A stretch of 57,539 nucleotides of DNA from Candidatus Pacearchaeota archaeon. GTDB lineage: Archaea; Nanobdellota; Nanobdellia; Pacearchaeales; GW2011-AR1. The notes under the pieces are model-generated. The model was not told where the DNA came from, made no database searches, and was given only the letters and a program-made list of their open reading frames with translations. Below are positions 16,946-57,539 of this stretch, in pieces. The first letter of the stretch is position 1, and the number at the start of each line of letters is the position of its first letter. The translations under genes were made by a program, and so were the position numbers. The stretch covers positions 1 through 57,539 of the forward strand of contig JAFCEO010000002.1 in the NCBI GenBank assembly GCA_017609085.1, given 5' to 3'.

Positions 16946-17047
16946 GGGCCTGTAGCTCAATGGATAGAGCATCCGCCTTCGGAAGGCAGATTATCATAGA
17001 AAACTTGTAGAAAGCGGACGATAGGGGTTCAAGTCCTCTCAGGCCCA
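16946..17047 (+). tRNA. tRNA-Arg(TCG) with 37/38 intron (16983-17012)
   Basis: GGGCCTG/CAGGCCC acceptor; TCCGC-CT-TCG-G^A-GCGGA after intron removal. Confidence 0.9.
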
Positions 17048-20365: not shown

Positions 20366-20452
20366 GAGGCTGTAGCTCAGTCTGGTTAGAGCACTGCTCT
20401 GATATAATTTTCAGACAGGCAGGGGTCCGCGGTTCAAATCCGCGCAGCCTCA
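20366..20452 (+). tRNA. tRNA-Ile(GAT) with 37/38 intron (20405-20416)
   Basis: GAGGCTG/CAGCCTC acceptor; CTGA/TCAG central helix of the splice motif. Confidence 0.92.
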
Positions 20453-49265: not shown

Positions 49266-49352
49266 TGGATCCGGAGGGATTTGAACCCTCGACACCCAGG
49301 TTAAGAGCTTCACCACGATTCTGGTGCTCTAACCAGACTGAGCTACGGATCC
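49266..49352 (-). tRNA. tRNA-Lys(CTT) with non-canonical 30/31 intron (49309-49320)
   Basis: Removing AATCGTGGTGAA gives CCAGG-CT-CTT-AA-CCTGG; CACC/GGTG central helix. Confidence 0.9.
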
Positions 49353-54800: not shown

Positions 54801-55055
54801 ATGAAATCTTCTCAAGTATCTCTGCAAATAGGTAAAAGAGGATTAACACACGGCACTATTGAAGCAATAAAAAATGCATTTAAAACAAGAGAGAATGTTA
54901 AAGTTTGTGTTTTAAAAAGTGCAGGTCATGAAAAAAAGAAAATTAAACAGATAGCAGAAGAAATTCAAAAAGAGTTGGGCGAGAGATATACTTATAGAAT
55001 AATTGGGTTTACAATTTTCTTAAAAAAATGGCGGAAAGCGAGAAATTTTAAATAA
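54801..55055 (+). CDS. YhbY/CRM RNA-binding protein
   Basis: QIGK.GLT, E.VKV..L, IG...L; likely ATG at 54801. Confidence 0.85.
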   Translation: MKSSQVSLQIGKRGLTHGTIEAIKNAFKTRENVKVCVLKSAGHEKKKIKQIAEEIQKELGERYTYRIIGFTIFLKKWRKARNFK

Positions 55056-55059
55056 ATCG

Positions 55060-55160
55060 ATCTTTGAGTCCTCAGCTCTGTTTCGTTCTGCTACGCTCCT
55101 CGTCTATGGCTTCGGAGAATATAACACACATTCAACAAAATTCAGGCGGCTCACTTAGAT
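55060..55160. repeat. Structured spacer element E1 (most divergent copy)
   Basis: Outer stem ATCT.TGAGTC/GGCTCA...AGAT, GCTACGCT, inner CTCC/GGAG hairpin, ATATAAC-ACACATT. Confidence 0.55.
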
Positions 55161-55194
55161 ATTAATTAGAGTAAAAAAAGAAAGCAAATCAAAA

Positions 55195-55416
55195 TTAGTC
55201 TAATGGCCTATATTGACATTCTGTTGCCAAGATATATCTTTTTGGATCCGTATCCAATTCAATTATTGTTCTATATGGTTCTTCTACATCATCTCTAACG
55301 ATTCTTCCTTTTAAAGTTCTTGAAGTATCATAGTTAAAACAAACTTCTACAACTTTGTCTAAATGTTCTCCTTGTTGAGGGAATCTATCAAAACCTACAT
55401 TTTTTACAACGCCCAT
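55195..55416 (-). CDS. Small hypothetical protein (cassette 1)
   Basis: 73 aa with SD-like AAGGTGG and a TTTATAAA box upstream. Confidence 0.8.
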   Translation of the reverse strand: MGVVKNVGFDRFPQQGEHLDKVVEVCFNYDTSRTLKGRIVRDDVEEPYRTIIELDTDPKRYILATECQYRPLD

Positions 55417-55463
55417 TTTAATCCACCTTACAAATAGTATAAACTTAATCTTTATAAATCTTT
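55417..55463 (-). promoter_or_regulatory. TATA/SD leader module, near-duplicate of 56740-56786
   Basis: Minus strand AAAGATTTATAAAG...TATACTATTT.TAAGG.G.ATTAAA-ATG in both copies. Confidence 0.75.
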
Positions 55464-55604
55464 AGGGTGATGGGGGCTTTGCCTTGATACGCCGATTTTT
55501 TACTTTGGATTTTTCGGCTTCGCCCAACGTTGCACTAAAATCCAACCTTCGCTAACGCTCAGGGAAACTAACACGCATTGTGCGAAATTCACTCCGCCCA
55601 CCCT
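55464..55604. repeat. Structured spacer element E2
   Basis: AGGGTG/CACCCT outer stem, TTGGATTTT/AAAATCCAA hairpin, TCGCTAACGCTCAGGG (identical in E4), ACTAAC-ACGCATT. Confidence 0.75.
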
Positions 55605-55647
55605 TTCAATACTTTTATAAATAATTAAAAATTACTAAATTAGTAAT

Positions 55648-56292
55648 ATGAATAAAAAATTCAATATTCAGGTTCCAAAAGAACATTATTTTGGAAAATA
55701 CGATGATTTAATGAGATTTATATCTTATTTTTATCAAATTGATTTGGTCAGAAAATTAAAACCAAACAATGTTCTTGAAGTAGGAATTGGAAATAAAACT
55801 GTTTCTAATTATCTTAAACAAAATGGAATAAAAGTTGATACTTGTGATTTTAATAAAGATCTTGAACCAAATTATGTTGCTGACATTAGAGAGTTACCCT
55901 TTAAGGACAAATCTTATGATGTTGTTATGGCTTGTGAAGTTCTTGAACATATCCCTTGGAAAGATGTGGAAAGAGCATTAAAAGAACTCCATAGAATTTC
56001 AAAAAAACACGTCCTTATTTCTATTCCTTATTCTTCAACAGGATTTGAATTGCTGTTCAAATTTCCACTAATTGGTAGAATTCTCAAAAGACCTTTTTTG
56101 GATTTATTTTTAAGAATTCCCTATTTTTTCATTGGGATTAAATTTTCTGGTGAGCACTATTGGGAAATGGGTAGAAGAAATTATTCAAAAAGAAAAATAA
56201 AATCACTTTTTGGAAAGTATTTTAAAATAATAAAAGAAATTAGGCCTATTTTAAACCATTATCATTATTTTTTTATTCTTGAAAAAAAGTAG
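55648..56292 (+). CDS. Class I SAM-dependent methyltransferase (cassette 2)
   Basis: VLEVGIG, D, LPF.D.SYDVV...EVLEH motifs; own TTTATAAATA box. Confidence 0.9.
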   Translation: MNKKFNIQVPKEHYFGKYDDLMRFISYFYQIDLVRKLKPNNVLEVGIGNKTVSNYLKQNGIKVDTCDFNKDLEPNYVADIRELPFKDKSYDVVMACEVLEHIPWKDVERALKELHRISKKHVLISIPYSSTGFELLFKFPLIGRILKRPFLDLFLRIPYFFIGIKFSGEHYWEMGRRNYSKRKIKSLFGKYFKIIKEIRPILNHYHYFFILEKK

Positions 56293-56384
56293 GAGGCGGG
56301 GCTCCGTGAACTCAAAATTACTTCATAATTTTGGTGCTAACGCACTCGCACAACAGCGATTATACTCAATTGCGAGTCCGCCTC
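56293..56384. repeat. Structured spacer element E3
   Basis: GAGGCGG/CCGCCTC outer stem, TGAACT-CAAAATTA/TAATTTTG, GTGC-TAAC-GCAC, GCACAAC-AGCGATTAT. Confidence 0.8.
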
Positions 56385-56535
56385 TTTCAGAGGTTGCCAC
56401 CGAAAATTTTTAATGTTGTTTCCTTCGTTAAAATTCACAAACAAAAAAGAAGTAACAAAAATGTTTCACAAATCGTCTAACAAAATTTTAACGAAATTGC
56501 TGAAGATTTTAAAATAAATAAAAACGAAAGAAAGA

Positions 56536-56739
56536 TTATAATTTTTCAACTAATGTTTTGCTTTCTATTTGTCGTCCAGAAAATTGAGTTTTTTGTATTT
56601 GTGTCATCCAGTCTACATATCTTTTTTCAGGACCCGGATTTGGCAAAACACTTGGTTTTGTTTCTTTTTTAGGTATTTGTGTCATCCAATCAGCATATTA
56701 CCTTTCTGGACGATTTTCTATTGCATTTGGATTATACAT
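56536..56739 (-). pseudogene. Short repeat-containing ORF interrupted by TAA (cassette 3)
   Basis: MYNPNAIENRPER*YADWMTQIPKKETKPSVLPNPGPEKRYVDWMTQIQKTQFSGRQIESKTLVEKL. Confidence 0.65.
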
Positions 56740-56786
56740 TTTAATTCGCCTTAGAAATAGTATAACTTATTCCTTTATAAATCTTT
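56740..56786 (-). promoter_or_regulatory. TATA/SD leader module, near-duplicate of 55417-55463
   Basis: Aligns to 55417-55463 with 4 substitutions and 2 single-base indels. Confidence 0.75.
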
Positions 56787-56807
56787 CCTAATTTACTACT
56801 CTGAAGT

Positions 56808-56908
56808 TAATATTGACGCCCGATTCTGAACTCAAAATCCTTTGGATTTTGCCCCGCTGCGCTCTCGCTAACGCTCAGGGCACATAACGCGCATTAAATG
56901 AAATATTA
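56808..56908. repeat. Structured spacer element E4
   Basis: TAATATT/AATATTA outer stem, TGAACT-CAAAATCC/GGATTTTG, TCGCTAACGCTCAGGG, ACATAAC-GCGCATTA. Confidence 0.8.
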
Positions 56909-57157
56909 CTCGGCGGTTTTATCAGCACTAATTATCTTTTCAATTCCTTGTCTTATTTCTCTTAGAAAATCTTCAACATTCATATCTCCCGCATTAATTT
57001 CAAAGTTCCCGACTCTAATACAATGTTCAACGGTTTGTTGTTTTGAGTAATCTAAATTTTTATAGACTACTACTATACATTTACCATACTGATCTAATTC
57101 AAATGTTTTAGGATGTGCATTTATCTGAATATAATACTCCCAAATAGGTCTTTTCAT
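56906..57157 (-). CDS. Small hypothetical protein (cassette 4)
   Basis: 83 aa; TTTAAATA box upstream; stop overlaps the E4 right arm. Confidence 0.7.
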   Translation of the reverse strand: MKRPIWEYYIQINAHPKTFELDQYGKCIVVVYKNLDYSKQQTVEHCIRVGNFEINAGDMNVEDFLREIRQGIEKIISADKTAE

Positions 57158-57199
57158 ATTTTTAGATTAAAGAAAAATATTTAAATATCTCGATTACAA

Positions 57200-57310
57200 A
57201 CCGCCAAGTAATACTCAAAACTTTTTATACTTGCAAAGCTCATTAAAAAGTTTTGGTTTTCTCTCCGAGAAAACTCACTTAACAGCGATTATGTCTATTC
57301 AGAATTCGGT
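57200..57310. repeat. Structured spacer element E5
   Basis: ACCG/CGGT outer stem, ACT-CAAAACTTTTTA/TAAAAAGTTTTG, GTTTTCTC/GAGAAAAC, ACTTAAC-AGCGATTAT. Confidence 0.8.
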
Positions 57311-57539
57311 CTAAATGATGCAATTATCAGAAGACATTTTCATTATTACCTCTTTTCCTAATAATTCTTCTAGTTTTTTCCTGAAATCTTCCTCGTTTTT
57401 TTTCACATCCTATTGCTTCTATTGAAGAAAGGCTACCAGAGGCTACTTGAACAAAAAATCCAGGAGATATAAAATATCTATACATTCTTCCAGAATCATC
57501 TTCTGTTTCCCAATCCCTCCAACCAAGATATCTTACATC
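57311..57539 (-). pseudogene. 3' part of a gene running off the window (cassette 5), apparent frameshift in an A8 run
   Basis: ...YLGWRDWETEDDSGRMYRYFISPG...GCEK, then after removing one A: NEEDFRKKLEELLGKEVIMKMSSDNCII*, with the stop abutting E5. Confidence 0.5.

Follow-up and report, generated by a model that had tools for sequence, protein, structure and literature searches.

The right-hand end of the DNA analysed here, a stretch of 57,539 nt that makes up the entire contig C7 of a Candidatus Pacearchaeota genome bin (JAFCEO010000002.1; the window), carries five related elements, E1 to E5, that alternate with single small genes. We consider it likely that these elements belong to an integron-like gene-capture platform, built on a paralogue of the archaeal recombinase XerA and on dif-like sites and not on the integron integrase IntI and attC sites. 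Integrons are the textbook case of gene capture, with an integrase believed to derive from Xer-like enzymes; in the system described here, a Xer recombinase seems to have given rise to a cassette platform a second time and independently. The anatomy of the sites, their common orientation, the linkage of arrays to recombinase genes in a fixed geometry, the separation of these recombinases into clades of their own with intact catalytic residues, and the boundaries at the cores are demonstrated below. We found no prior description of such arrays in the full-text literature, a search with subscription journals and supplements outside its scope, and the available sections of a tyrosine-recombinase survey (PMC8138268) mention archaeal Xer-like groups and no cassette arrays.

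Five Co-oriented Elements Cluster in the Window

We built a sequence-only covariance model, R1, from 11 copies of the element, E1 to E5 among them; divergent copies are missed by it. R1 places the five elements on the + strand within 55052-57318 (Table 1), at coordinates within about 30 nt of those in an initial annotation of the bare sequence, which had described five related elements pointing the same way and alternating with genes in the order -, +, -, -, -. The list of open reading frames (ORFs) gives the same gene order, and the three words that had been reported as shared were all located in the respective element pairs: TCGCTAACGCTCAGGG lies at 55549 (E2) and 56865 (E4), and exact 12-mers are common to 56307/56827 and to 56352/57281. 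Rfam 15 yielded no match on E1 to E5 at gathering thresholds and no credible one at E<=10. Throughout the 583-kb genome there are eight strong copies, namely the five of the window, one inside contig C8 (C8:23324-23415) and two at contig starts (the first 104 nt of C13, and C22:25-133), besides three weak matches (E about 0.005), so that the elements are clustered and not scattered among core genes, as ordinary miniature repeats would be. The lone C8 copy (- strand, locus L020) sits in a 31-kb contig between a 104-aa ORF and a 309-aa ORF that looks sugar-isomerase-like by eye, no family search having been run on it.

In two runs of public metagenomes, contigs over 55418-55621, a stretch that covers the left module of E2, had summed depths of 144-227 and 12-14, against about 4 or less in neighbouring bins. 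Most of these high-depth contigs run on into unlike sequence, which together with the depth peak indicates that the E2 left module is common in those metagenome communities.

Table 1. Coordinates of the elements, cores, cassettes and genes of the array, and of related blocks in other genomes. Arms and spacer of each core are separated by slashes.
Feature	Position	Strand	Description
E1	55052-55169	+	R1 46.6 bits, E 8.7e-13; structured left module and core
E1 core	55114-55141	+	GGAGAATATAA / CACACA / TTCAACAAAAT; spacer and right arm diverged
Cassette 1	55131-55577		
Cassette gene 1	55195-55416	-	ORF, 73 aa; no Pfam match; TATA-like box near 55452
Promoter and 5' leader of gene 1	55414-55463		direct repeat D1, 82% identical to 56737-56786 of gene 3
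E2	55490-55606	+	R1 44.5 bits; left-module type 84% identical to copies in other families (pairwise)
E2 core	55561-55588	+	AGGGAAACTAA / CACGCA / TTGTGCGAAAT
Cassette 2	55578-56359		
Cassette gene 2	55648-56292	+	214-aa S-adenosylmethionine-dependent methyltransferase; Methyltransf_11, E 2.2e-13
E3	56299-56390	+	R1 41.2 bits; fold z-score -4.2
E3 core	56343-56370	+	CACTCGCACAA / CAGCGA / TTATACTCAAT
Cassette 3	56360-56893		
Non-coding start of cassette 3	56371-56470	+	local alignment to flank of the lone C8 element
Cassette gene 3	56536-56739	-	broken: one in-frame TAA after codon 13; internal tandem repeat D2
E4	56815-56924	+	R1 61.5 bits, E 2e-17; top-scoring copy
E4 core	56877-56904	+	AGGGCACATAA / CGCGCA / TTAAATGAAAT
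Cassette 4	56894-57288		
Cassette gene 4	56906-57157	-	ORF, 83 aa; no Pfam match
E5	57194-57318	+	R1 31.6 bits; minus-strand fold z-score -3.8
E5 core	57272-57299	+	AACTCACTTAA / CAGCGA / TTATGTCTATT
Cassette 5	57289 onward		
Cassette gene 5	57327->57539	-	open-ended ORF, 70 codons, cut by contig end; no Pfam match
attI-like block	L069:4770-4880, L084:5900-6000, L085:5880-5980, L098:50-140 (-)		upstream of clade I recombinase

Each Element Joins a dif-Like Core to a Structured Left Module

An alignment of 72 distinct copies from this and related genomes, anchored on an invariant AAC, revealed a 28-bp core in the 3' part of each element, laid out as an 11-nt arm, a 6-nt spacer and a second 11-nt arm, with the consensus GGGgcAttTAA / CAGgGA / TTAaAcGgAAt. 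Positions T9, A10, A11, C12, A13, T18 and T19 are invariant or nearly so over the 72 sites. The consensus matches the tested dif site of Pyrococcus abyssi (sequence taken from PMC2958812) at 14 of 28 positions, where random 28-mers of the same loci match at 7.9 on average and at 16 at most, and arm symmetry is 4.6 of 11 positions, compared with 3.0 in random 28-mers and no more than 3.35 in shifted registers.

The core is preceded on its left by a module of about 70-90 nt that has hairpins and conserved blocks such as CGCTGCGCT or its variant CGTTGCACT. In a 13-sequence alignment of the E2 subfamily (A3), 95.7% of the cells of a 9-bp helix, P1, are paired and seven of its nine pairs show compensatory changes, a result that none of 500 shuffles reached, while slid registers pair at 61% or less. 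The covariation of P1 bears out the earlier description of the elements as structured repeats, although their most conserved part is the unstructured core and not the left module. RNAalifold gave no consensus structure over all 75 aligned copies because the subfamilies are too unlike. One isolated piece of an E2-type left module (a hairpin and ACGTTGTACT) was seen at C15:300-330 (locus L028), with no core and below the R1 threshold, and a 16-nt word of the left module matched two viral contigs, neither of which matched R1.

Two further structural candidates were tried and rejected. A general closing stem, in which the start of the left module would pair with the stretch after the core, can be seen in E2, E3 and E4 but is not supported family-wide, as the duplex energy of an element's own partners (-11.0) hardly differs from that of permuted ones (-10.8); a second test gave -10.8 against -10.0 for shuffled segments and -10.2 for a downstream segment. 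The ends of E3 itself are able to pair (GGAGGCGGGGCTC with GAGTCCGCCTCT). The idea that TTCG motifs represent RNA tetraloops was dropped, since the hairpins close as TTC triloops and the motif is therefore uninformative on RNA versus DNA.

Relatives, unlike the window, also contain long-form sites (e.g., L083:1520-1750 (-), L068:1503-1690 (+) and L081:5000-5241 (-)). A non-coding module of 100-150 nt, made of a hairpin, CCAAATT and another hairpin, comes after the spacer in 26 of 71 copies. In 12 of the 71 copies the two terminal 12-nt stretches of this module are complementary to each other, with at least six different covarying arm pairs, and there a second spacer and a normal right arm come next. 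The long form reads as a fold-back site or as a mini-cassette without a gene, in which case the complementary ends would give the excised circle a perfectly symmetric core.

Arrays Are Co-oriented in Related Genomes

R1 was scanned over relatives, all of which are genome bins and whose kin are not independent of one another. It matched 59 of 151 genomes sampled from the order (E<=1e-3) and 65 of 151 in a phylum-level sample (E<=1e-4), the latter all labelled as the same class or family. The 67 matches of 17 fetched loci never mix strands within a locus. Neighbouring elements are no more than 3 kb apart in 45 of 51 consecutive pairs, with a median gap of 569 nt, and these 45 gaps hold one ORF of at least 50 aa in 30 cases, none in seven and more than one in eight. 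The direction of the ORFs relative to the element is the same in 28 and opposite in 28; ORF calling was mechanical, and in the third interval of the window it chose the antisense frame of the broken gene. Six of ten sampled cassette proteins have no Pfam family, and the others are a methyltransferase, a CYTH-domain, a NYN-domain and a DUF5680 protein. Cassette content differs between relatives.

Arrays Are Linked to a Dedicated XerA-Like Recombinase

In the relative G145 a tyrosine recombinase gene stands beside an array of five to six sites. We used its product as a query across the order and fetched 60 loci with 5-kb flanks. Of 62 loci examined, 17 have elements no more than 5 kb from a XerA-like gene, a fraction that is no prevalence because 14 of the loci had been picked by eye for apparent adjacency; in further genomes from other families with at least three elements each, adjacency was found in five of ten. 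The geometry, which unlike the fraction is unaffected by the choice of loci, is the same in all 22 adjacent cases: the array lies upstream of the 5' end of the recombinase gene and on the opposite strand, so that the recombinase is transcribed away from it. The recombinase start codon and the beginning of the upstream array are 0.2-3 kb apart in each of the 17 adjacent loci.

A maximum-likelihood tree of 60 recombinase proteins resolved three clades. Clade I (support 100/100) contains three array-adjacent proteins, two at contig edges and none labelled non-adjacent; clade II (92/87) contains 12 adjacent, four at contig edges and two labelled non-adjacent; and clade III (100/97) contains no adjacent protein, four at contig edges and 33 labelled non-adjacent. 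Thus all 15 array-adjacent proteins of the tree belong to clade I or II and none of the 37 of clade III does. Of the two non-adjacent clade II genes, one is 465 nt from a contig end; the other has elements 14 kb away, with side and strand as expected. In 11 genomes an adjacent copy coexists with one of clade III, and we read clade III as the housekeeping XerA. The catalytic residues R-K-H-R-H-Y are intact in 5/5 clade I, 17-18/18 clade II and 37/37 clade III proteins, and clade I and II proteins are 267-309 aa long.

The G145 enzyme scores just under the cut-off of the archaeal XerA family NF040815 (217.8 bits; cut-off 220) and far from that of the integron integrase family TIGR02249 (180 bits in two separate stretches; cut-off 265). 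Its closest solved structures are the XerA proteins 4a8e and 5hxy, which align end to end over residues 24-269. The alignment to IntI4 (2a3v) covers residues 14-185 only and stops where the catalytic-domain half begins, and by these comparisons the array recombinases lack the IntI-specific insertion.

A block about 100 nt before the start codon is common to the four clade I loci with enough upstream sequence (4/4). It runs GACTTTTAAC, which differs by one base in one locus, then about 28 nt, then AGTTCGTTAAAAGYCTG and directly a canonical right arm (TTAG.../TTAT...AAT); its outer pieces form a 10-bp inverted repeat (GACTTTTAAC ... GTTAAAAGTC). Weaker versions are present in the clade II locus of genome G002 and in the C13 locus of our own genome. 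By analogy with the relation of attI to attC, the block may be a recombinase-proximal site that combines a normal right half with a private left half.

Cassettes Are Bounded by the Cores

E3 and the lone C8 element are unrelated to the left of the core and about 90% identical rightward from the AAC for about 85 nt, beyond which the similarity is weaker. This homology was also considered as a small protein gene, a candidate rejected on one synonymous versus seven non-synonymous differences. We then find the same kind of breakpoint across 2556 element pairs: 17 left-only homologies (80% identity or more leftward, 40% or less rightward), all between genomes, end at +4 to +19 from the AAC, and six right-only homologies, defined in reverse, begin at -16 to +8. 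A CYTH-domain cassette is common to G145 and G108, which belong to different genera, with 96.5% identity of the protein and 90.9% over 618 nt. Identity begins exactly at the right arm of the upstream core (TTATACGAAAT) and extends over gene and left module as far as the spacer of the next core (ATAA-CAAGGG), sequence outside these two points being unrelated; the sites are short in G145 and long in G108. A NYN-domain cassette is likewise common to G099 and G108 (87.9% protein identity), and its nucleotide identity fades before the cores.

The E3/C8 homology, the left- and right-only breakpoints and the shared CYTH cassette indicate that the cassette unit consists of a right arm, a gene, a left module, a left arm and a spacer, its boundary lying inside the element. 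Such a unit explains why homology between genes 1 and 3 covers their promoters as well as the adjoining left modules: the D1 stretches of both genes stand directly left of related left modules, those of E2 and E4 (repeat D3).

A Model for Cassette Excision and Insertion

By analogy with tyrosine-recombinase chemistry, from which catalysis and a circular intermediate would follow, the dedicated XerA paralogue would bind both arms of a core with two subunits and cleave at the arm-spacer junctions, strand exchange proceeding across a spacer that must match between partners. That the spacer is strongly conserved throughout the family accords with this requirement. Two co-oriented cores would release a circular cassette with one rebuilt core, and insertion would be the reverse reaction, at any core or at the attI-like site near the recombinase gene. 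The left module could serve as an accessory or architectural arm, determining direction or the choice of partner, or as a fold of single-stranded DNA, and it may have a role as RNA. Cassettes with their own promoters would leave the direction of the gene free. P. abyssi XerA alone performs integration and resolution in vitro with no partner protein (PMC2958812), which makes the paralogue plausible as a stand-alone integrase.

The Array of the Window Looks Inactive

Our own genome has two tyrosine recombinase genes, at C13:1150-1821 (locus L003) and C4:508-1214 (locus L001). The first is one gene away from the C13 element, belongs to clade I and is 57% identical to the G030 protein; the second belongs to clade III and is frameshifted. 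The initial annotation had placed a recombinase or a HUH enzyme outside the window, and the former half of that expectation holds, for the enzyme is a tyrosine recombinase of XerA descent, broken in this genome and array-adjacent in relatives. In this 88%-complete genome we found neither a Y1/HUH transposase nor a reverse transcriptase.

Several observations weigh against a gene-capture platform. The sole clade I recombinase is on another contig and has a frameshift near its N-terminus and a 37-aa deletion in the catalytic domain, while the upstream end of the window array is occupied by housekeeping genes and not by a recombinase. As the clade III gene is frameshifted as well, assembly error is possible for both, besides real decay. 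The spacers of the window are unequal (CACACA, CACGCA, CAGCGA, CGCGCA and CAGCGA for E1 to E5), so not all sites could exchange with each other. The likeness to dif is modest, with only the inner three positions of each arm reliably symmetric; from a homodimeric enzyme of the XerA type one would expect a preference for arms of greater symmetry. The covariation of P1 suits RNA and single-stranded DNA alike, with 3 of 117 cells being G-U/T wobbles, and left modules are up to 98% identical between families with both flanks unrelated, as might also be expected of a self-contained unit that is mobile or under strong selection. Only two between-genera cassettes stood out among 241 between-genome ORF pairs (780 ORFs compared), and no cassette gene of the window was found beside an element elsewhere. 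Neither an excised circle nor a recombination event was observed; two DNA runs, searched as contigs and covering 8-9% of sampled words, showed no joints across cassettes and are neutral on excision. Only these two DNA runs, and no RNA run, turned up for this DNA. Given the broken C13 recombinase, the diverged spacers, the broken gene and the upstream end without a recombinase, the array of the window looks recombinase-less, inactive and decaying.

Other Explanations of the Array

Four other readings of the array deserve attention. The first holds that elements pile up at the chromosomal dif through the housekeeping Xer enzyme, in the manner of integrative mobile elements exploiting Xer (IMEX), the cores being duplicated dif sites with no dedicated platform. 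The core does have the dif layout and half of the positions of P. abyssi dif, the XerA of that species integrates and resolves by itself in vitro (PMC2958812), and the near-complete, two-contig genome G002 has one XerA-like match, which adjoins its array. The array-adjacent clades are, however, separate from the clade found once in most genomes, 11 genomes hold both kinds, and no element lies near any of the 33 clade III genes away from contig edges. Nor does plain duplication of dif explain the structured left module or the attI-like site of clade I, and the units are single genes, not phage- or plasmid-sized. We rate this reading as very unlikely. That the elements are structured non-coding RNA genes or cis-acting RNA elements between small accessory genes, with the fold as their function, we hold to be very unlikely. 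It would make sense of the strong covariation of P1, of the folding of E3 and E5, which is better than that of shuffles (z -4.2 and -3.8), and of left modules so well conserved across families, but it leaves the fixed recombinase geometry (22/22) without explanation, and no Rfam family matches even at E<=10. The elements are oriented with respect to array and recombinase and independently of adjoining genes (28 in the same direction, 28 in the opposite one); moreover, the part that is most conserved is the unstructured dyad core, and it is at this core that homology breakpoints and the shared cassette end.

Repeats of a selfish kind, such as miniature inverted-repeat transposable elements (MITE), repetitive extragenic palindromes (REP) or palindrome-associated transposable elements (PATE), inserted in a permissive region by a transposase acting in trans, strike us as highly improbable. 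The sharp edges and unrelated flanks on both sides seen in some pairs, the breaking of assemblies at elements, with copies at the starts of C13 and C22, and the metagenome depth peak over 55418-55621 with its unlike continuations are all of the kind that such repeats produce. Yet there are only eight copies, clustered and strictly co-oriented (67/67 matches); terminal inverted repeats or target duplications were not seen, nor the Y1/HUH transposase or reverse transcriptase searched for in the 88%-complete genome, and what is linked to the elements is a tyrosine recombinase in a fixed geometry. The least probable of the four is an ordinary integron array without an integrase (a cluster of attC sites lacking integron-integrases, CALIN), whose elements would be attC sites used by IntI. 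Its appeal lies in the integron-like layout of co-oriented sites and mostly single-gene units, in the attC arrays reported in archaea, including Nanoarchaeota (Ghaly et al., 2022; PMC9668308), and in an imperfect AAC...GTT palindrome in 12 of 71 copies of relatives. Against this, a box scan of 55000-57539 for canonical attC boxes, RYYYAAC...GTTRRRY at 50-160 nt apart, returned 0 pairs on either strand. The linked recombinases, at 267-309 aa, are colinear with XerA, fall well short of the TIGR02249 cut-off (180 against 265 bits) and lose the IntI4 alignment at residue 185. The genes show no co-orientation (28/28), and the family occurs in 39-43% of sampled genomes, as opposed to the 75 of 6718 archaeal genomes given in PMC9668308. 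The attC box test, the clustering and the core-bounded cassettes thus favour what the initial annotation had proposed, a gene-capture platform with non-canonical sites; the dif-like core, the cassette boundary inside the element and the lack of a recombinase at the upstream end of the array go beyond it.

Relation to Known Systems

The platform that we favour resembles integrons in that the recombinase gene points away from an array of co-oriented sites with mostly one gene per unit, in its distinct recombinase-proximal site, in a site that travels on the upstream side of the cassette, and in a content mostly of unknown function (six of ten sampled cassettes lack a Pfam family). Arrays without an adjacent recombinase, such as that of the window, have their parallel in attC clusters without integrase, which PMC9668308 describes. 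It differs in the enzyme, a XerA paralogue without the IntI-specific insertion, and in the site, a dif-like double-strand core plus a one-sided structured module instead of an R/L-box palindrome. Its genes have their own promoters and point in either direction, whereas integron cassettes are mostly promoterless, co-oriented and served by a common promoter, and its prevalence in this lineage is far higher.

The pdif modules of Acinetobacter are likewise small accessory-gene modules bounded by 28-bp Xer-type sites and apparently shuffled between replicons, but they use the housekeeping XerC/XerD and are found mainly on plasmids. While pdif sites alternate in orientation, ours are co-oriented, chromosomal, equipped with a structured module and served by a dedicated recombinase clade. 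IMEX, for example the filamentous phages of Vibrio, enter at a Xer site, leave duplicated sites as direct repeats and use the host Xer; they are whole phages or islands, in contrast to the single-gene units and dedicated enzyme described here. With archaeal XerA/dif (Cortez et al., 2010; PMC2958812), our system shares the recombinase family and the 11-6-11 layout with inner ...TAA and TTA.... According to the same source, however, dif is single-copy, located at the terminus and away from xerA, whereas our sites form multi-copy arrays beside a paralogue, with weakly symmetric arms and an added module.

We lean, with somewhat less assurance, towards a wider reading, in which a convergent counterpart of the integron extends across the whole class of these small-genome archaea, with a XerA-paralogue integrase, its own attI-like site and cassettes that end in a structured arm and half a dif-like core, in about 40% of sampled genomes. 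Cassettes and site modules seem to pass from genus to genus and from family to family. If this is true, cassette exchange would be a main route of gene gain in these reduced genomes. The hosts have very small genomes and depend on other cells, and how they gain or swap accessory genes is poorly understood. Should the mechanism hold, it would explain a variable region in about two fifths of the sampled genomes of a large uncultivated class, and also the assembly breaks at arrays. In practical terms, it would provide new recombinase-site pairs that need no partner protein and make the origin of integron-type systems testable by comparing two solutions.

Cassette Genes and Setting of the Array

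TATA-like boxes (TTTATAAA or TTTAAATA, read by eye) stand 20-35 nt upstream of all four complete cassette genes, in line with the TATA box that had been noted before each of them. Two genes had been called decaying; decay was confirmed for gene 3 only, and gene 5 is truncated by the contig end. Similarly, the claim that four elements touch or nearly touch a stop codon is correct for E1, E3 and E4 and roughly so for E5, at a distance of 17 nt. A relic of a second half-site (CCTTCGTTAAAA) lies in the non-coding stretch with which cassette 3 starts. Homologues of gene 1 were not found in 150 other genomes of the order, and those of gene 4 occur in 2 of the 150, where neither adjoins a good element; a search of the fetched array loci for the genes of the window gave one weak methyltransferase match. 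The last seven codons of gene 4 overlap the GC-rich stretch behind the E4 core. This stretch and the first bases of E5 form a 16-nt inverted repeat, 94% complementary (56904-56919/57198-57213), which flanks the gene.

The genome bin comprises 27 contigs with 31% G+C, a composition that, like its size, suits the small-genome (DPANN-type) archaea which the initial annotation had in mind. Contig C7 starts with an archaeal rRNA operon, and just left of the array Pfam searches identified a NFACT-R-domain gene and a CRM/YhbY-domain gene (54801-55055), the stop codon of the latter being the start of E1. The same stretch also carries a cysteinyl-tRNA synthetase-like ORF and a 427-aa RuBisCO-like ORF, both as read by eye with no family search run. 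The rRNA operon and housekeeping genes on C7 indicate a chromosomal location of the array, which extends to the end of the contig.

ARAGORN found no tRNA in the array region. In the whole window it lists four tRNAs where Rfam lists seven; the extra three (16946-17047, 20366-20452 and 49266-49352) are 87-102 nt long, which suggests intron-containing tRNA genes.

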